From positions 1 through 61,373 of the forward strand of contig CALRDS010000001.1 of NCBI GenBank assembly GCA_943354975.1: a stretch of DNA of 61,373 nt, given 5' to 3'. The position numbers and the translations under genes are program-made. This document shows positions 17,488 to 61,373 of the stretch, one piece after another (positions within the stretch are counted from its first letter, which is position 1; each line of letters begins with the position of its first letter). Under the pieces are notes generated by a model, which was given only the letters and a program-made list of their open reading frames with translations, was not told the origin of the DNA and searched no databases. The DNA is from Candidatus Nomurabacteria bacterium (GTDB lineage Bacteria; Patescibacteriota; Minisyncoccia; Phycocordibacterales; UBA5272).

Positions 17488-18372
17488 ATGCCTGATAAAT
17501 ACTCTGCAGTGTGGGTATCACATTCTTCTATGGGAGACTTTTTGAAATGTCCTCGCTTATATTATTTACATAACATGTATAAAAGTAAAAAAACTGGACG
17601 AAAGATATCCATTGTAAGCCCACACATGTCGTTAGGTGTCGCAGTCCATGAAGTATTAGAAGGATTGGCGAATTATCCTGCAAATGAAAGATTAGATACT
17701 GATTTGCGTGCGAAGTTTGAAGAAGAGTGGTTAAAAGTATCTGGTAAAAAAGGAGGGTTCACAGATACAGACGAAGAGGATGAGTTTAAAATGCGCGGGA
17801 AAGACATGATAAACAATGTAATAAAAGATCCGAAGTTTTTAGTTAACAAATGTGTAAAACTAAAAAGAGGGGAGATGAACCCAAATTTTTATTTAAGTGA
17901 AGATGACAACATTATCTTAAATGGATTGATTGATTGGCTAGAATATTTACCACTTAGTGACTCGCTTCACATTGTTGACTTTAAAACTGGTAAAAAAGAG
18001 GAATCCGAAGCGTCTCTTCAGCTTCCAATATATTTATTACTTTGTAATGCACTTCAAAAAAGAAAAGTAACTAAGGCAAGTTATTGGTACCTAGAATCTG
18101 GAAATATAGTCGAAAAAGAATTACCGGACGCTGATACTGCCTATAGAGATGTATACACTGTGGCTCGAAAAGTAAAAGACGCTCGTGTGAAAGCAAAACG
18201 TGAAGGGGAGGATTCTGTTTTTGTATGTCCGCAAGGTCCATATAACCCAACAACACTTTCTGGTGGATGTATGTACTGTCGACCGTATGAGTGGATAATA
18301 TCTGAAAGTGATATGGCAGAGCATGTGGGAATTGGTGGATTTAATCAAGATATGTATATAATTAAGAAATAG
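17488..18372 (+). CDS. PD-(D/E)XK nuclease with 1+3 Cys cluster (AddB/Cas4-like)
   Basis: An N-terminal Cys (KCPRLYY), IVDFKTGKK, QLPIYLLL, and C-terminal C-x13-C-x2-C. This arrangement is typical of iron-staple RecB-family nucleases. Confidence 0.8.
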   Translation: MPDKYSAVWVSHSSMGDFLKCPRLYYLHNMYKSKKTGRKISIVSPHMSLGVAVHEVLEGLANYPANERLDTDLRAKFEEEWLKVSGKKGGFTDTDEEDEFKMRGKDMINNVIKDPKFLVNKCVKLKRGEMNPNFYLSEDDNIILNGLIDWLEYLPLSDSLHIVDFKTGKKEESEASLQLPIYLLLCNALQKRKVTKASYWYLESGNIVEKELPDADTAYRDVYTVARKVKDARVKAKREGEDSVFVCPQGPYNPTTLSGGCMYCRPYEWIISESDMAEHVGIGGFNQDMYIIKK

Positions 18373-18759: not shown

Positions 18760-18958
18760 TTTGGGCACTAGTCGCAATTTATAAATTTCCCTCATGGGTG
18801 ATTTTTATAAATATCCCATATCTGATATTGGTGTCGTTTGCCACTATTTTACAACTGACCACACTATCCCTAAATCGCTAAATAAGGGGCCTTACAGAGC
18901 AATATATGCCAAATTACAAGGGGCTGAAGAGGTGTTTAGAAAAACTCTATAACTCCAA

Positions 18959-19081
18959 AGTCTTTGTAAATTTGGAGCCAGTTCTAGGCGCGGAGAAACG
19001 AGTGAGGAGACGTACGAAATAGTACGTTAACGAGTGAGAGAGGCTTCGCAACGAAGAAATGGCCCAAATTTACAAAGACTT
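18959..19081 (+). repeat. R element copy a, flanked by perfect 18-bp inverted repeats
   Basis: AAGTCTTTGTAAATTTGG (18959-18976) and CCAAATTTACAAAGACTT (19064-19081). The core at 18984-19058 carries GAGGAG, ACGTAC-GAAATA-GTACGT, and ...CGCAACGAAG. Confidence 0.6.
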
Positions 19082-30682: not shown

Positions 30683-30689
30683 ATTAAAT

Positions 30690-30724
30690 AGTTTACAGTT
30701 TATAGTTGTTAGTTACTAGTTAAT
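30690..30724 (-). repeat. heptad tract (AGTTNNN)x5 on +, (NNNAACT)x5 in scpA sense
   Basis: AGTT at 30690, 30697, 30704, 30711 and 30718. The proximal unit gives TAAACT, 7 nt before the scpA ATG (30682). Confidence 0.7.
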
Positions 30725-33685: not shown

Positions 33686-33811
33686 AGCTTTTTGATTATA
33701 GCAAAAATTGACTAATGTAGAAATATAAACAGGTTTTTGGAGAAGTATTTAAATCTTAATTTGACTTTTTTATTAATTGTGCTACAATTAATATGTTATC
33801 AATTAAGGAGA

Positions 33812-39197: not shown

Positions 39198-41093
39198 TTA
39201 TGCACTAGTTTCACCATCTTTCTTTTCTTCTTTAACTTCTTCGGCTTTCGGTGCTTCTTCAGCTTTTGCATTATCAGCAGAAGTCTTCATCGCTTCCCCT
39301 ATCTTCATCATCTTCGTAGAAAGATTTTCACCTGCTTTCTTTAGAACTTCAATATCAGACCCGTCACGGGCTTTCTTTACTTCATCAATTGCTTCTGTCA
39401 CTTCTTTCTTTATTTCGGCAAATTTATCTTCAGCGCCTGTCTGCGCAGGCAGGTCTTTAAGAGCTTTTTCTGCTGTATGAACCATCACATCTGACATATT
39501 TTTTACTTCAACTAATTCAACTTTCTTTTTATCCTCTTCAGCATGAGTTTCTGCATCTGCCTGCATTCGTTTAATATCTTCGTCTGAAAGACCCGAAGAT
39601 GCTTCGATTCGAATTGTTTGAACTTTTCCTGAAGTCTTATCTTTTGCAGTTACATTTAACACTCCATTTGCATCTACATCAAACGTAACTTCAACCTGTG
39701 GCATACCACGTGGCGCTGGAGGAATGCCATCCAATATAAATCTACCAAGAGATTTATTATCTGTAGCCAGTGGTCTTTCACCTTGAGTAATGTGAATTTC
39801 TACAGAGGTTTGATTATCAGAAGCTGTTGAAAATATTTGAGATTTTGCTGTAGGAATAGTTGTATTTTTTTCAACCAACTTTGTAGCGACGCCACCCATA
39901 GTTTCAATTCCTAAAGAAAGCGGAATAACATCAAGTAAAAGGAGATCCTTGACGTCCCCTTGTAATACACCAGCCTGCACAGCAGCCCCGAGAGCAACCA
40001 CTTCATCTGGATTAATGGAACGGTTCGGTTCCTTGCCAAATAAAGCCTTCACAGCCTCTACAATCATCGGCATACGAGTCTGACCCCCTACCATTATAAT
40101 TTCATGTATCTCTTCTTTTTTAAAAGGCGAACTCTCTAATGCACGTTTTGTAATTTCGATCGATTTATCCACAAATTCTTTTGCAATCTCTTCAAGTTTT
40201 GCACGTGATACCTTCATTAACAAATGTTTTGGTCCGTCAGCACCAGAGGTAATAAATGGTATATTAATTTCAGTCTCTATTTGTGTTGATAGTTCATGTT
40301 TTGCTTTTTCTGCAGCCTCATCAAGTCTTTGAAGAGCAAGTGCATCTTTTGATACATCTATTCCTTGATCTTTTTTAAATTCAGATGCAATAAACTGTAC
40401 AAATTTTTGATCAATATCACGTCCCCCCAAATGTGAGTCACCATCTACTGATTTTACCTCAACAACTCCATCACCTACCTCTAGAATCGAAATATCAAAT
40501 GTACCTCCTCCAAAATCATAAACTGCAATTTTTTCATTCTTTACACTATTAAATCCATAAGCGAGTGCTGCGGCTGTTGGTTCCGGAATAATACGCATGA
40601 CCTCAAGTCCTGCGATTTTACCCGCGGCAATAGTTGCTTGTCGTTGAGTGTCATTGAAATAAGCCGGCACTGTGATAACGGCTTGTGTAATAGTCTCGCC
40701 AAGTTTTGCTTCAACATCTGTTTTTATTTTTTGTAAAATCATTGCAGATATTTCCTCAGGACGAGTGTCTTTGCCTCCTAAAGTAATAAGTACACCATCG
40801 TTTTCTCCTTTCTTAATTTTGTAGGAAACACGAGGGATATCATCTTGAACATCTTTATCACTAAATGAGTGTCCCATAAAGCGCTTCACACCGTGAATTG
40901 TATTTTCTGGATTCGTCACCGCTTGACGCTTCGCAATTTGCCCAACAGAACGTTCTCCATTTTTATTAACAGAGACAACAGAAGGTGTGGTACGATTACC
41001 TTCAAGGTTTTCGATTATTTTTGGTTGTCCTGCTTCTATAATTGCAACAGCTGAATTTGTTGTTCCTAGATCAATGCCGATAATTTTTGCCAT
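39198..41093 (-). CDS. dnaK: molecular chaperone DnaK
   Basis: [18 protein letters not shown] and the full Hsp70 pattern. Confidence 0.97.
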
Positions 41094-41183
41094 AACATTA
41101 ATAGTTTAAGTTTTTGTTCAATAAAATTTCAAAATCCCAATAATAATTTATTTCAATTCCTCAGAACGAAACAAATTGACCGA

Positions 41184-41264
41184 GATACGAAGCGCAAAAA
41201 GTTTTTGGGAGGAGATGTAGTTAAAGCTACATTGACCGACAAAAATGATGTTGTAACAAAGTAG
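41184..41264 (+). repeat. R element copy c (between grpE stop and dnaK promoter)
   Basis: GATACGAAGCG...GTTTTTG-GGAGGAG-ATGTAG-TTAAAG-CTACAT-TGACC..CAAAAAT...GTAACAAAGTAG. Ends 5 nt before the grpE stop codon. Confidence 0.6.
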
Positions 41265-41269
41265 ATTGG

Positions 41270-41917
41270 TTAAGCTGTTTCGTTATGACCAACGTGCACT
41301 CGGGCGGGACGGATAACGGTATCATTCATTCGGTAACCAGACTGTAGCACTTTTACTAGTTTACCATTTTCATCTTCGTTTGTAACGTTTACCATTTCCA
41401 TACTTTCGTGGAGTGCTGGATTAAATTCGTCTCCAATTTTACCGAACTGCTCTACCCCTTCTTTTTCTAATACAGATCGTAATTGCCCAAATATATATTC
41501 TATACCAACACGCCAATTTGAATCAACTTTTTCCCAGGATTCTACATTTCCTTTTGCCATATCATAACCATCAAGTACTGGAAATAATTCTTCAATGAAT
41601 CGCTTTGTGGCAAACTTTCTATCCATAGCACGATTAGACTCTACTTCTTTTTTAAAATTTGCATAATCTGCGCGCGTGCGTTGACTTAAATCCAAATACT
41701 CTTGTTTTTCAGATTCAAGTTTTTTAATCTTCTCACGAAGCTTTTTTATAGTTGTTTTTACATCCACCTCTCCCTCTTCATTTACTTCTTCAAAAGATAT
41801 GTCTTCATCACTCTTCGCTCCTTGAGAAACATCATCAGAATTTTCCGTTGAAGTCTCATGACTTATCGCTGATATTTCTTCGTTGTTAATTGTTTCAATT
41901 TCTTCTTCATTTTTCAT
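41270..41917 (-). CDS. grpE: nucleotide exchange factor GrpE
   Basis: Acidic N-terminus, a coiled coil with R..AD..N.KK, and C-terminal G...H.A......G.V..V...GY......IRPA.V. Confidence 0.9.
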   Translation of the reverse strand: MKNEEEIETINNEEISAISHETSTENSDDVSQGAKSDEDISFEEVNEEGEVDVKTTIKKLREKIKKLESEKQEYLDLSQRTRADYANFKKEVESNRAMDRKFATKRFIEELFPVLDGYDMAKGNVESWEKVDSNWRVGIEYIFGQLRSVLEKEGVEQFGKIGDEFNPALHESMEMVNVTNEDENGKLVKVLQSGYRMNDTVIRPARVHVGHNETA

Positions 41918-42630: not shown

Positions 42631-42789
42631 GAAGAAACCTCCCAACCAAGAACAGAATTTACTTGCTTAATTGCAAGAATATTTTAAATACTACAGAAAA
42701 TATATAATAAATCAAATTAACCAAAAAGCTTCCAATTTCTATGATTTCTTGTTAATTATTATATTTTGTAAACATATAATATTGAAATG

Positions 42790-42871
42790 AATACAAGACG
42801 CAAGGAATTTTTACTACCAAGACGTACACATGGTACGTCGCGTTGAGAAAAAATCCTGAGCAACGCAGTAG
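42790..42871 (+). repeat. R element copy d
   Basis: AATACAAGACG..GGAATTTTT...GACGTAC-ACATG-GTACGTC...AAAAAATCC-TGAGCAACGCAGTAG. Flanked by AATATTGA/TCAATATT. Ends 12 nt before the stop of the rpsI-tail mini-ORF. Confidence 0.6.
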
Positions 42872-42883
42872 TCACTCAATATT

Positions 42884-43006
42884 TTAACGTTTACTCCAAG
42901 TAGGTGCTTTGCAGGCTTTTTTGAGACCAAATTTGTTAATAGTATTTTTTACTTTTACCACCCATATCACTCTTAGGAGAAAGGTTTCGTTGAACAGATT
43001 AATCAA
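42884..43006 (-). pseudogene. rpsI 3'-end duplicate that retains an open frame (S9-tail mini-ORF)
   Basis: Encodes ...VKVKNTINKFGLKKACKAPTWSKR*, against authentic S9 ...ENVKNTLKKLGFLKRDSRQVERKKFGLKKARKAPTWSKR*. There is a 48-nt in-frame deletion, and the last 16 codons differ at 6 synonymous and 1 non-synonymous sites. Confidence 0.5.
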
Positions 43007-43123
43007 CTACTGAGAAGATATTTACAAAAAAAACTAATTTTAAGTTAGAATAAGGTGTTGCACTTGGCGTTTGAAATTTAATATGTTTCAACATAAAAAA
43101 ATTATTAATGTTATATTTAAAAC

Positions 43124-43432
43124 ATGGAAAAATCTCCACAAAATGAATTTACTCATATAGCTGATCTACTGTCTAAAATAAACACTATTTCTCTCGATGA
43201 TATAAGACAATTCCAAAATAGTCTTCTACGGCACAATACTAAAATATTTGAAAGACTACCAATGCTCGAACAGAAAATTTTAGTAGCAATAAGTAAATTA
43301 ACAGAATCACAATTAGAACATATATATTATACAGCAGAAAAGGGAGGTCATATACTAGGACTTCATGATTTAAAAAACCATGTAAATTTCTACAAAGGAT
43401 TAACTACCAATACTGACCCAAAAATACACTAA
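43124..43432 (+). CDS. hypothetical 102-aa protein (AT-rich, host-like composition)
   Basis: Clean ORF between the rpsI duplicate and authentic rpsI. No family recognised. Confidence 0.5.
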   Translation: MEKSPQNEFTHIADLLSKINTISLDDIRQFQNSLLRHNTKIFERLPMLEQKILVAISKLTESQLEHIYYTAEKGGHILGLHDLKNHVNFYKGLTTNTDPKIH

Positions 43433-43458
43433 ATATTTTTAACGACTAAATAGGTTTG

Positions 43459-43866
43459 TTATCTCTTACTCCAAGTAGGTGCTTTACGAGCTTTCTTTAG
43501 TCCAAATTTCTTTCTTTCTACTTGTCTTGAGTCACGTTTCAAAAATCCAAGTTTCTTAAGAGTGTTTTTTACATTTTCATCTCGCATAACTAGAGTACGA
43601 GAAAGTCCATGGCGAACAGCTTCAGCTTGAGCATGTATTCCTCCACCTAAAACATGGACTGATACCAAAAACTTTTCTCCAACTTCTCCCTTTGAAATAG
43701 CCTCCTGAGCAATCATTTGAAGCTCACCAGTCGCAAAATAATCCTTCACATCCTTTTCATTTACAACAAAAGACCCCTTTGTTGCTGGAGTAATGCGAAC
43801 ACGAGCAATAGCAGTCTTTCGACGACCTACAGCTTCTATATAACGATTTTTTGTTTCTGTTGACAT
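43459..43866 (-). CDS. rpsI: 30S ribosomal protein S9
   Basis: GRRK.A.ARV...G.G...VN....Y...V.GGG..GQA.A...G..R and the C-terminal tail ...KAPTWSKR. Confidence 0.95.
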   Translation of the reverse strand: MSTETKNRYIEAVGRRKTAIARVRITPATKGSFVVNEKDVKDYFATGELQMIAQEAISKGEVGEKFLVSVHVLGGGIHAQAEAVRHGLSRTLVMRDENVKNTLKKLGFLKRDSRQVERKKFGLKKARKAPTWSKR

Positions 43867-43876
43867 ATAATTTAAT

Positions 43877-43908
43877 AGTTTTTAGTTTACAGTTATCAGT
43901 TTTTAGTT
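43877..43908 (-). repeat. heptad tract (AGTTNNN)x5 between rplM and rpsI
   Basis: AGTT at 43877, 43884, 43891, 43898 and 43905. The sense strand reads ...GATAACT GTAAACT AAAAACT... Confidence 0.7.
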
Positions 43909-44251
43909 ATTCTTCAATGACTAAATTCTTCATACGAATATCTTGTAATTTATTTTTTGGAAGCATTCCATAAACGGCATGCTTTATAAGTTCAGAATAT
44001 CCTTTCTTTTCTACTACATACTTAAGTGGCATTTCTTTTAAACCCCCAGGAAATCCTGAGTACGATTTATGAACGCTTACATTCATTTTATTACCAGAAA
44101 CTTTTATCTTGCTAGCATTTATAACTTTTACAGATACATCCGCTACGCGATGTTTTACGAAATCTACACTATCTTTTGCATTAAGAAGAGCCGCGACCTG
44201 CGAAGCAAGACGTCCTAATACTTTATCTGTAGCATCAATTGTGTGTGTCAT
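43907..44251 (-). CDS. rplM: 50S ribosomal protein L13 (short form, 114 aa)
   Basis: IDA....LGRLAS.VA..L and GMLPKN.L motifs. Confidence 0.9.
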   Translation of the reverse strand: MTHTIDATDKVLGRLASQVAALLNAKDSVDFVKHRVADVSVKVINASKIKVSGNKMNVSVHKSYSGFPGGLKEMPLKYVVEKKGYSELIKHAVYGMLPKNKLQDIRMKNLVIEE

Positions 44252-47356: not shown

Positions 47357-47389
47357 AGTTTTTTAGTTTACTGTTGTCAGTTTTCAGTT
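47357..47389 (-). repeat. heptad-like tract upstream of rpsM
   Basis: AGTT/TGTT at 47357, 47365, 47372, 47379 and 47386. The sense strand reads ...GAAAACT GACAACA GTAAACT AAAAAACT. Confidence 0.6.
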
Positions 47390-47401
47390 AAATTCTGATA
47401 C

Positions 47402-56074: not shown

Positions 56075-56097
56075 ATTCTTCCAAGTATAACATGGGT

Positions 56098-56125
56098 AGT
56101 TTTCAATTTACAGTTTAGAGTTTTC
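56098..56125 (-). repeat. heptad tract AGTTTTC AATTTAC AGTTTAG AGTTTTC
   Basis: 7-nt period, upstream of TATACT and the dsbA-like ATG (56074). Confidence 0.6.
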
Positions 56126-59934: not shown

Positions 59935-60339
59935 ATGAGCAAAAAATTAATTTACAATAAAGCTCTAGCAATTCCCATAGACCGCGTAGCAGCACGGGTG
60001 CTAAAAGAAGGAGAGCACTACGAGCCGCGAAGAATACCCAACAAGTTCTCACTTTTATACCACTCAGAAACACCACTGCCGATTCGACCCACACCAGTAG
60101 ATGCGCCAAAACTAGTGGGTATTACATTCGGAAGGCTTTCTGTAATTGGTCTACATGCAACAGTTAATGGTTTGTGGGTGGTCCGTTGCACCTGTGGCAA
60201 TTATGAAGGTCGCAGGACAAAAGCAATACTAAACCCCAAGAACAAATATGATCGTTGTGCAAAATGCGAACATTTAAGACATATAAAGAGCAATTACCAT
60301 TTTCTTAAAACAGGAAAAAATTGCGACAGCAATGATTAA
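59935..60339 (+). CDS. hypothetical zinc-ribbon protein, cassette I
   Basis: FGRLSVIG....NGLWVVRCTCGN...(17)...CAKC is a four-Cys module common in phage/mobile small proteins. TTGACA (59873-59878), 16 nt, TGcTACAAT (59895-59900). GAGGAG upstream. Terminator GACCC...GGGTC plus a T run (60365-60394). Confidence 0.55.
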   Translation: MSKKLIYNKALAIPIDRVAARVLKEGEHYEPRRIPNKFSLLYHSETPLPIRPTPVDAPKLVGITFGRLSVIGLHATVNGLWVVRCTCGNYEGRRTKAILNPKNKYDRCAKCEHLRHIKSNYHFLKTGKNCDSND

Positions 60340-60440
60340 CAATTTGTTTCTAACACCACCTCACGACCCTTAGATTGGGGTCATTTTTATTTTCAAACAA
60401 AAAGCAAAACTTGGATTTATAAAGCAGAAAAATTGGTTTA

Positions 60441-60520
60441 GATACGCGGCGTGAGCGATTTTTATGAGGAGACGTAGATAGAACTACGTTGACGATTAAA
60501 AATCGTGAGCAACAAAGTAG
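60441..60520 (+). repeat. R element copy b
   Basis: GATACGCGGCGTGAG-CGATTTTTA-TGAGGAG-ACGTAG-ATAGAA-CTACGT-TGACGAT-TAAAAATCG-TGAGCAACAAAGTAG. Ends 5 nt before the lysS stop codon. Confidence 0.65.
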
Positions 60521-60525
60521 ATGAA

Positions 60526-61373
60526 CTAATTTTTCGGTTTTATTAGAGGGAACATGTGGACCTCGCGAATAGGCTTATCTGCCAAAAATGCAAACAACCT
60601 CTCTCCAAATCCAAATCCACAAGTCGGTGGCATGCCGTGTTCAAGCATTTCTACAAAATCATGGTCTGCCATCATGGCTTCTTCATCCCCTCCTGCAAGA
60701 AGCACCTGTTGAGTATCAAATCGTGCACGCTGATCAATTGGATCATTTAATTCACTGTAACCTTTTCCGATTTCACTGCCAGCTAAGATTGGTTGGAATA
60801 ATTGCGCGGTCTCTTTGTCAGGATTGGCCTTTGCAAGTGGTGCCACAAGTAATGGATGATTAATTAAAAATGCTGGGCCAGAAATATTCTTGCGACAATA
60901 TTTCCAAAGTGTATCAATCAGTCTTTCGCGATTCGTACCATCATACTTAACTTTTAGCTCATGAAGCTTATCTTTGATCTCTTGGTCAGTGGATTCTTTT
61001 ATATTTATATGCGTTTGACGGAATATTTCATCTGTATAATCAAGTCGCTTCCATTCCTCACTTAAATCAAAAGCATGTCCACGTGTAGTGAACTTTGTAG
61101 TTCCAAATACTTCTGTGGCAATTTTTCTGTACAACTCCTGTACTAGATTCATGCCGTCTTCATAATCCGCATATGCCATGTAAAATTCACAATTAGTAAA
61201 CTCTTGCACATGTTCCGGAGAAGATCCTTCATTTCTATATACTCGTCCGATTTCAAATGTTTTAGGAAATCCAGCTGCCATAAGTCTCTTTTGCCAAAGT
61301 TCACCAACAGATATTCTCATGAATACATCTAAATCAAAATCATTATGATGTGTAGCAAAAGGTCGTGCTTCTG
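60526..61373 (-). CDS. lysS: lysine--tRNA ligase, class II (N-terminus outside window)
   Basis: The frame stays open to the window edge (..EARPFATHHNDFDLDVFMRISVGELWQKRL..). Motifs 2 and 3 are present, with GMPPTCGFGFGERL. Confidence 0.95.
   Translation of the reverse strand, partial: EARPFATHHNDFDLDVFMRISVGELWQKRLMAAGFPKTFEIGRVYRNEGSSPEHVQEFTNCEFYMAYADYEDGMNLVQELYRKIATEVFGTTKFTTRGHAFDLSEEWKRLDYTDEIFRQTHINIKESTDQEIKDKLHELKVKYDGTNRERLIDTLWKYCRKNISGPAFLINHPLLVAPLAKANPDKETAQLFQPILAGSEIGKGYSELNDPIDQRARFDTQQVLLAGGDEEAMMADHDFVEMLEHGMPPTCGFGFGERLFAFLADKPIREVHMFPLIKPKN

Follow-up and report, generated by a model that had tools for sequence, protein, structure and literature searches.

Does the hairpin that follows the grpE and lysS genes of a Candidatus Nomurabacteria genome belong to those genes, or is it a repeat that has settled at their stop codons? 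The sequence in question, here called the R element, was studied in contig CALRDS010000001.1 (assembly GCA_943354975.1), of which positions 1 to 61,373, the whole stretch of 61,373 nucleotides, are referred to as the window. R elements are copies of one imperfect palindromic, hairpin-forming repeat family of ~125 nt. A covariance model built from a 93-sequence alignment and run with filters off returns exactly four copies in the window, all on the + strand (next best match, E>=0.8), which is roughly one copy per 15 kb (four in 61 kb). They share the + strand core GAGGAGAYGTAS…STACRTTGAC and align over ~120 nt. A BLAST candidate for an extra copy, at 33705-33761, received no covariance model support. 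The copies, and the gene ends contained in two of them, are as follows.

41161-41288, + strand: R copy a, a full palindrome with its core at 41209-41236 (covariance model match 41163-41282, 75.5 bits)
41270-41288, - strand: the grpE stop (41270-41272) and the last 16 nt of its coding sequence (…H-N-E-T-A), inside the 3' arm of copy a
60416-60546, + strand: R copy b, with a solid stem at 60427-60535 and its core at 60466-60493 (covariance model match 60420-60538, 87.8 bits)
60526-60528, - strand: the lysS stop, which lies with the last codons (K-P-K-N) inside the 3' arm of copy b
42769-42889, + strand: R copy c, degenerate (covariance model match 30.1 bits, E=4e-4)
18958-19081, + strand: R copy d, the top-scoring copy (covariance model match 18959-19077, 96.9 bits)

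The core pattern GAGGAGAYGTAS-N4-8-STACRTTRAC was scanned across one genome per GTDB species and matched at 105 loci in ~63 assemblies, against ~11 matches expected by chance, an estimate made from the information content of the pattern; all but ~5 of the 105 matches have the same flanking architecture. The carriers are mostly labeled Patescibacteria, Paceibacterota, Nomura-, Zambryski-, Kaiser-, or Uhrbacteria, and several carrier metagenome-assembled genomes (MAGs) are labeled Myxococcales (GC ~0.7) or Omnitrophota; the labels are as deposited, and some of the third-party annotation (TPA) labels look unreliable. The 93-sequence alignment yields a long hairpin with compensatory changes at 13 of its 19 predicted pairs. 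Paired cells make up 95.9% of this alignment, compared with 77.5% after shuffling and 27-47% with slid partners, and 320 cells carry double changes versus ~100 in the shuffles. No family in Rfam 15, at gathering or permissive thresholds (E<=1-10), overlaps any copy in the window or in six further loci, and literature searches with the core sequence, Patescibacteria repeats, and structured RNAs of the candidate phyla radiation (CPR) found no description. The R family is thus real, widespread, and undescribed in the resources searched.

The conserved center of the element reads AGAURC-RAGGC … GAGGAGAYGUAS-loop-SUACRUUGACGA … AAC-RMAG-YAGAUG. Along the strand that carries GAGGAGA, the 5' half consists of an outer arm of ~26 nt with an A-rich start, AGAURC, RAGGC, and a variable middle stem; the apex consists of GAGGA, the apical stem GACGUAS-loop-SUACGUU, and GACGA; and the 3' half consists of the middle stem again, AAC-RMAG-YAGAUG, and the second outer arm. 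The middle stem has at least two widespread types, AUUUUUAU/AUAAAAAU and GGAGAAACGAGC/GAGCGAGAGAGGCUCC, and many copies have GNRA-like apical loops. The conserved internal loops are symmetric and purine-purine (GA-G-GA opposite GA-C-GA, AGAU opposite AGAU) and, on our reading, would form tandem sheared G·A motifs. In nearly every copy the arms pair for 25-27 nt past C24/G97, beyond which pairing collapses; given this constant arm length and the collapse of pairing, the element is a discrete unit of ~125 nt. Outside the conserved core, the median complementarity score of the two arms is 33.5, compared with 4.0 (95th percentile, 20.6) when arms are mispaired between copies. Head-to-tail tandem arrays of two to four units occur at four loci (L089:6170-6650, L004:6190-6600, L076:850-1095, and L039:1410-1775). 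In copy a, the structured GAGGAGA strand is the + strand, with the boundaries TCATAACG...CGTTCTGA.

Several other identities were considered for the element and dropped. On by-eye comparison we dismissed a hammerhead core, a K-turn (its 3-nt bulge is missing, and the tandem G·A loops are symmetric), a single-stranded DNA (ssDNA) promoter or sso, and DNA uptake sequence pairs. Recoding of the SECIS/PYLIS type was dismissed because all three stop codons are used with no frame preference, and a conserved read-through peptide because the offsets span all three frames. Loci L052 and L089, considered as half elements or autonomous versions, are really elements with short internal insertions.

The relation of the element to stop codons was derived from 117 nhmmer hits and mechanical open reading frame (ORF) calls, with an ORF threshold of 70 codons for the arrangement counts. 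The gene located 3' of the GAGGAGA strand almost always runs on the opposite strand and stops at the arm. This standard arrangement, in which an opposite-strand ORF has its stop against or within one arm, is the only one found in 59 of the 93 copies with enough flank, and its mirror image is the only one in 4; 2 copies show both and 28 neither, some of the latter being explained by tandem arrays. The rule also holds between convergent genes and in high-GC MAGs, and in ~65% of cases the gene on the far side (5' of the GAGGAGA strand) is co-directional. In most copies the palindrome starts 0-3 nt past the stop, and in about half of all copies the stem takes in the stop along with up to 19 nt of coding sequence. 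Upstream lie housekeeping genes of many kinds (70 proteins with 92 Pfam families, no transposase), including the small subunit of ribonucleotide reductase (RNR) seven times, trigger factor three times, and EF-G/LepA three times, as well as GyrA, release factor RF2, DEAD helicases, RpoC, S7, AlaRS, chaperones, and tRNA synthetases.

The initial annotation of this DNA had described R elements as sitting at a fixed offset after stop codons. Its readings on the minus strand, grpE TAA-CCAAT-CTACTTTGTT and lysS TAG-TTCAT-CTACTTTGTT, are confirmed in the sequence, and so is the 12-nt distance from the stop of the ORF that resembles the tail of ribosomal protein S9 to CTACTGCGTT (the copy it called d is our copy c). 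The offset itself is not fixed: of the 86 copies that have an ORF next to them, 72 have its stop 5-30 nt from CTAC, the mode being 18-25 nt, so that the 5 nt of the window is the short extreme. Within the window, the strong copy d is an exception in orientation, being reversed, and follows the stop of a 52-amino-acid (aa) ORF only. A random position and orientation of the other copies, named in that annotation as an outcome that would speak against its idea, is not seen (59 standard, 4 mirror). Its other such outcome, flanking repeats identical between copies as in a MITE (miniature inverted-repeat transposable element), is found in one MAG.

That MAG, labeled Zambryskibacteria (PPGI01), has at least five copies at unrelated genes with the identical full arms AACTTYCAAAACTGG/CCAGTTTTGGAAGTT; they sit 0-6 nt past stops that are TGA or TAG, and the starts of four contigs fall inside the element. 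In most genomes, and likewise in the window, the arms are diverged and locus-specific, with the center conserved. The arms are part of the element and travel with it. This bears on the second proposal of the annotation, in which each element is enclosed by a stem built from the last codons of the local gene. The inverted repeats underlying that proposal exist: GAAAAATT (60427-60434) pairs with AATTTTTC (60528-60535), AATATTGA (42778-42785) pairs with TCAATATT (42876-42883), and AACGAAACA (41165-41173) pairs with TGTTTCGTT, the last being located at 41276-41284, one base away from where it had been placed. The stem is, however, not made locally, given that arms of a constant ~26 nt are homologous between loci and that GrpE relatives ending in GHFEK* point to an origin in the element. 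The argument that locus-specific flanks exclude terminal repeats likewise fails, as the same arms occur at unrelated genes in the Zambryskibacteria MAG and one arm is shared by grpE and lysS. What does hold is that the distal arm varies along with the end of the coding sequence at some orthologous loci, namely tig and prfB, while at grpE the matching codons are borne by the element.

The grpE site gives the clearest view of these codons. Among GrpE relatives from metagenomes, the element follows grpE only in the window and at loci L108 and L115, where the proteins end GH-NETA*, GH-NNKN*, and GH-SDKN*, each followed by TAA-CCRATCTRC; ten GrpE relatives (64-77% identity) without the element end ...GHFEK(x)* and have a short AT-rich spacer to dnaK. 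This comparison of filled with empty sites shows that the last four or five codons and the stop of grpE are supplied by the arm of the element. The same probably applies to the last codons and the stop of lysS. The lysS copy and the grpE copy at L108 have the same arm in the same frame (AAA-AAT-TAG-TTCATCTAC and AAA-AAT-TAA-CCAATCTAC), AAAAATTAR-NNNATCTAC is the arm common to the grpE and lysS copies, and the 5-nt spacer found in both is due to this arm homology (AAA-AAT-TAR). The Pfam domains end at aa 210 of 215 in GrpE and at aa 259 of 264 in LysS, i.e., 5 residues short of each C terminus. At the orthologous prfB, tig, and RNR-beta sites, the outer ~14 bp including the end of the coding sequence is kept and the inner module belongs to a different subfamily, and at tig the distal arm follows the differences in the coding sequence end between orthologous loci. 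As a separate observation, one GrpE relative without R (L109:3080-3190) has another GC-rich palindromic insert (…tcatcctcgcgaatgcggggatccagcccctggattcccgttttcacgggaatgaca…) right after the grpE stop; other repeat families appear to use the same position.

The two strands of the element differ in their ability to fold. In 99 of 101 copies it is the GAGGAGA strand that folds better (mean energies, -57.7 versus -42.7 kcal/mol), and in the window the values for the + and - strands are -46.4 and -25.2 kcal/mol for copy a, -47.9 and -23.6 for copy b, and -54 and -45 for copy d; only the decayed copy c is reversed (-34 versus -39). With strand-neutral scoring, the arm pairs comprise 161 G·U versus 23 A·C and 164 G·A versus 9 C·U. 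This asymmetry resides in the inner 13, conserved arm positions (G·U 92 versus A·C 18, G·A 102 versus C·U 5), whereas the outer 13 positions are nearly symmetric (53 versus 40). The better-folding strand is the template strand of the adjacent gene, and the gene-sense strand is C-rich and G-poor in all 84 of 84 copies (C/G = 1.7). In view of this composition, a Rho loading site was considered as a possible identity.

As deduced from the sequence, the element would be co-transcribed, in its weaker-folding orientation, in the 3' untranslated region (UTR) of the gene or in intercistronic RNA, and would not itself be the terminator, because separate terminators lie downstream, no U-tract follows, and the weaker strand is in the mRNA. 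In detail, a canonical intrinsic terminator in the direction of the gene lies at most 84 nt downstream of the element in 13 of 84 copies; the T frequency after the palindrome is ~37%, with no U-tract behind the hairpin; and a terminator scan of copies a and b on both strands made no call spanning the hairpin, while in the degenerate copy c it called one short internal stem with a T-run (42879-42856, - strand). A terminator toward the GAGGAGA direction lies just upstream in 18 of 84 copies, copy b among them, and no positional enrichment of TANNNT or TTGNNN, as a promoter would give, was found upstream of the structured strand.

The family shows signs of both movement and constraint. Near-identical copies occur at unrelated loci, grpE sites are filled or empty, the carriers include distant phyla, and units are arrayed head to tail. 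At the RNR-beta site of seven species, on the other hand, element identity averages 0.75 (up to 0.94) versus 0.41 at four-fold degenerate sites and 0.47 in the downstream flank. The same site also speaks for mobility through discordance between proteins and elements: L037 and L078 have proteins 75% identical, saturated four-fold sites (0.25), and elements 94% identical that differ mainly in the apical loop, whereas L037 and L076 have proteins 93% identical and elements only 61% identical, of different subfamilies. Copy c, which is cut off from the live rpsI gene, has lost its core. The best reading of these data is that the element is partly under purifying selection.

In kind, the R family can be classed among the palindromic repeat elements, and there is a minority chance of its embodying a new principle. 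The enterobacterial repetitive intergenic consensus (ERIC; also intergenic repeat unit, IRU) is an imperfect palindrome of 127 bp with a conserved central part, located in transcribed intergenic or 3' regions; its two orientations give RNA hairpins of unequal stability, its copy number varies, and it is regarded as MITE-like. R resembles it in being an imperfect palindrome of ~125 bp with a conserved center and unequally folding strands, in its intergenic or 3' location, and in a copy number that varies between genomes. The two differ in that R shows no apparent resemblance to the ERIC consensus (no formal alignment was made), comes from a different phylum, shows no TA duplication, and is biased 59:4 in orientation and abuts stops, whereas ERIC occurs in both orientations. 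The attC sites of integrons are imperfect palindromes of 57-141 nt that lie immediately 3' of an ORF in fixed orientation, and the strand that folds is the bottom (template) strand of the ORF, marked by non-canonical features. R is likewise a palindrome, ~125 nt long, directly 3' of an ORF and with a folded bottom strand; however, it has no R/L boxes (no RYYYAAC/GTTRRRY consensus at 44 boundaries), its outer ends are variable and A/T-rich, and it is found at core housekeeping operons, with no cassette arrays and no intI in the loci. Rickettsia palindromic elements, like other MITEs with in-frame insertions in genes, add codons to the host protein. The element-encoded tails and stops of GrpE and, probably, LysS recall them, but R alters the last few codons only and is almost always at the 3' end. 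The in-gene codons of the Rickettsia elements are mentioned in PMC3733652.

Repetitive extragenic palindromic (REP) sequences lie, according to PMC3733652, for the most part downstream of coding regions, where the genes on either side are co-directional or convergent. The REP unit is 20-40 nt long with a terminal GTAG or CGTC tag, and a REPIN consists of two inverted REPs with a less conserved spacer (PMC3116915 and PMC3733652). REPINs are predicted to form hairpins of ~100 nt in ssDNA or mRNA; they display compensatory changes, and their movement occurs in trans and leaves no target duplication (PMC3116915). Both systems form tandem clusters, R arrays resembling the clusters of REPs and bacterial interspersed mosaic elements (BIMEs). 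Unlike REPINs, with their conserved ends, R has a conserved center, variable ends, and no terminal tag; no gene for a REP-associated tyrosine transposase (RAYT) was seen near any R copy in 8-kb blocks; and stop codon adjacency and strict orientation are not reported for REPs in the passages of PMC3733652 that deal with stop codons and orientation. Classical MITEs share with R a small size (~125 nt for R), the non-coding and multicopy nature, and insertion polymorphism, as seen in the filled and empty grpE sites, but no target-site duplication was found around two complete recent R copies. The arms of R are identical in at least five copies of one MAG and diverged and locus-specific in the window and most genomes. 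An intrinsic terminator differs from R in the U-tract that directly follows its GC-rich stem. Stop codon precision without a target motif, strict orientation, and template-strand structure are not explained jointly by any known family.

Taking these data together, we put at roughly even odds a reading of R as a mobile hairpin repeat that is strand-specific, is akin to REP, ERIC, and attC, and is co-transcribed to give a hairpin in the 3' UTR. The element would be a non-autonomous mobile repeat that multiplies within genomes, fills a site in one genome that is empty in a close relative, is represented by different subfamilies at one site in different species, and occurs in several phyla. It would settle 0-3 nt past the stop of a housekeeping gene or a few codons ahead of it, and upon landing within the last codons its arm would supply new C-terminal residues and a stop. 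The folded template strand, with its G·U wobbles and tandem sheared G·A pairs, would be the form recognized by whatever moves or maintains the element, most likely as an ssDNA hairpin, by analogy with REP/RAYT, the ends of IS200/IS605, and the bottom strands of integron attC sites. The mRNA would carry the complementary C-rich strand as a long hairpin, intercistronic or in the 3' UTR. The terminating ribosome would run into the base of this hairpin, which probably affects stability or processing, like REP and ERIC. Since the element is conserved, a host-level role as a 3' barrier or an mRNA processing site is plausible.

A number of results weigh against mobility as the whole explanation. No transposase, recombinase, or reverse transcriptase is recurrent near the copies in the 8-kb blocks of the 105 loci, where clustering of 1635 ORFs in search of a partner gene gave housekeeping families only, and no autonomous parent element with the same ends was seen. 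The core pattern has 0 matches in viral contigs (IMG/VR). No direct repeat, as target-site duplication would leave, flanks two complete recent copies; no shared flank motif is present at 44 clean boundaries; and no mechanism accounts for an insertion that finds stop codons. The pattern of conservation, with the center conserved and the ends free, is the reverse of that of MITEs and REPINs. In ssDNA transposons of the IS608 type, the folded strand is expected on the lagging-strand template, which would be the sense strand of co-directional genes, the opposite of what R elements show. Finally, simple selfish mobility does not account for the purifying selection at the RNR-beta locus or for the way in which, at tig and prfB, the distal arm co-varies with the coding sequence end; both point to a function at the level of the host.

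As an alternative, R would be a host-evolved modular 3'-end device, a conserved inner module held in a locus-specific stem of the gene's last codons and acting on mRNA as a U-tract-less terminator, a stabilizer, or a stop-codon-sequestering structure coupled to the terminating ribosome. In favor of this, the stop lies 0-3 nt from the stem or within it, orientation is kept even between convergent genes, inner modules are swapped at prfB, tig, and RNR-beta within outer ~14-bp segments that retain the coding sequence end, the distal arm at tig tracks that end, conservation is well above that of four-fold degenerate sites, and copy c decayed once separated from its live gene. From the initial annotation, which had put this idea forward, the non-random 3'-end feature (59 versus 4 of 93) with a palindrome at the stop is retained and the locus-built stem is not: one MAG has the same full arms at unrelated genes, homology links the arms at grpE and lysS, the empty grpE sites imply that codons were replaced by the element, and the element is found in distant phyla. 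Its U-tract-less terminator agrees with the missing U-tract behind the hairpin but is weakened by the canonical terminators after 13 of 84 copies and by the weaker-folding strand in the mRNA (99 of 101). We therefore regard the device as unlikely, at perhaps one chance in a handful. Slightly less likely still is a new genetic device in which a conserved, strand-specific hairpin is read off the template strand or a complementary copy and is placed at stop codons to almost the nucleotide, in one orientation, in several phyla, and without a target sequence, insertion or maintenance being coupled to the end of translation or transcription, maybe as a domesticated module with exchangeable inner cassettes in locus-specific stems.

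The strand asymmetry could instead reflect a functional RNA made from the GAGGAGA strand, either a cis-antisense small RNA or a polar insulator that stops antisense transcription only. The higher stability of that strand in 99 of 101 copies, the excess of G·U and G·A over A·C and C·U pairs (161 versus 23 and 164 versus 9), and the GNRA-like apical loops would fit, and a hairpin ending exactly at the stop would shield the coding region. This explanation is nevertheless improbable: no conserved promoter lies upstream on the GAGGAGA strand, a terminator for that direction lies immediately upstream in 18 of 84 copies including copy b, no U-tract follows the hairpin on that strand because the stretch is the reverse complement of coding sequence, and the ~65% of co-directional neighbors leave no obvious source of antisense transcripts. 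It is very improbable that R is a folded single-strand recombination site of the integron attC kind, used by some tyrosine or HUH recombinase and rendering gene plus element exchangeable. The position of a ~125-nt imperfect palindrome directly 3' of the ORF stop in fixed orientation, the strand-marking mismatches of the folded template (bottom) strand, and the replacement of modules at the same site in related genomes are what such a site would show; set against them are the absence of R''/R' boxes (RYYYAAC/GTTRRRY) at the ends, the conserved part being the center, the syntenic housekeeping operons (grpE-dnaK, the rpsI cluster) in place of cassette arrays, and the lack of an integrase in any of the 105 loci. 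AT-rich DNA does give many short inverted repeats, and several repeat families are only ~65-75% identical between copies, but a chance or compositional artifact of an AT-rich genome is refuted, its probability being negligible, by covariance model matches in the window that reach E=1e-14 to 1e-18, by the core pattern at 105 loci in ~63 assemblies, and by the covariation controls and the permuted-arm null, both of which reject it.

Regarding the surroundings of the four copies, Pfam confirms GrpE, DnaK, a class II Lys-type tRNA synthetase, and ribosomal protein S9, and the following features adjoin copies a, b, and c.

39198-41093, - strand: dnaK (Pfam HSP70, E=5.7e-238)
42884-42937, - strand: rpsI tail duplicate (final 54 nt, with the stop), 81% identical (repeat search, ORFs and sequence)
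43459-43866, - strand: live rpsI, ribosomal protein S9 (Pfam Ribosomal_S9, E=2.6e-37)
60365-60394, + strand: canonical intrinsic terminator GACCC…GGGGTC with a T-run (terminator scan), serving the + strand ORF 59935-60339

Copy a has grpE on one side and dnaK on the other, both on the - strand, and is intercistronic, because dnaK lies downstream in the same transcriptional direction. Read-through on the + strand into copy b is unlikely, because the terminator at 60365-60394 stops ~20 nt short of it. Copy c, whose core has decayed to ACCAAGACGTAC…GTACGTCGCGTTGAG between the flanking inverted repeats 42778-42785 and 42876-42883, adjoins the dead duplicated rpsI tail and not the live gene. A ~520-bp insert (42938-43458) separates the two and carries a + strand ORF (43124-43432, 102 aa, no Pfam match); the segment 42884-43458 has the appearance of DNA inserted at the 3' end of rpsI, with a replacement tail for the gene that was either duplicated or carried in. 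Copy d is surrounded by + strand genes and is thus reversed relative to its neighbors. It begins 5 nt past the stop of a 52-aa + strand ORF (18794-18952), and if this ORF is real, copy d is also stop-hugging, in the rare reverse orientation; the PD-(D/E)XK nuclease gene just upstream (17488-18372) does not recur near other copies. Genes are mostly on the + strand in 1-22300 and mostly on the - strand in 22378-61373, and the cumulative GC skew peaks at ~22.3 kb, a switch compatible with a replication terminus or with a plain change of operon orientation; since GC skew tracks gene orientation, it cannot separate the directions of replication and transcription. All four R copies stay on the same absolute strand across this switch.

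Two further repeats were observed in the window. An AGTT/AACT-rich repeat (TAGTTTACAGTTATCAGTTTTTAGTTA-like) is present at 30685-30716, 43876-43909, 47357-47390, and 56097-56124, 10-30 nt upstream of minus-strand gene starts, rpsI included, and similar "aactaattac" runs precede dnaK in four of the GrpE relatives (L106, L110, L117, and L124); it may be a leader or promoter motif. A tRNA-Gln(ttg) gene on the - strand (415-486) has, ~110 nt away, a 33-nt partial copy (570-602, 91% identical) that neither ARAGORN nor Rfam calls as a tRNA and that may be a tRNA fragment from an integration event.

Patescibacteria genomes are very small and gene-dense, and little is known of their non-coding elements. 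In such genomes the R element rewrites some protein C termini and follows core genes (RNR, trigger factor, GyrA, RpoC, RF2, chaperones, tRNA synthetases), and it is both a marker that breaks assemblies and a cause of wrongly called gene ends. It may have a role at mRNA 3' ends, in organisms not yet open to genetic study, and it poses the testable question of how mobile hairpins choose their sites. If true, the reading as a new genetic device, whether through placement coupled to the end of translation or transcription or as a domesticated module, would reveal a new principle by which mobile DNA locates the ends of genes in ultra-compact genomes.

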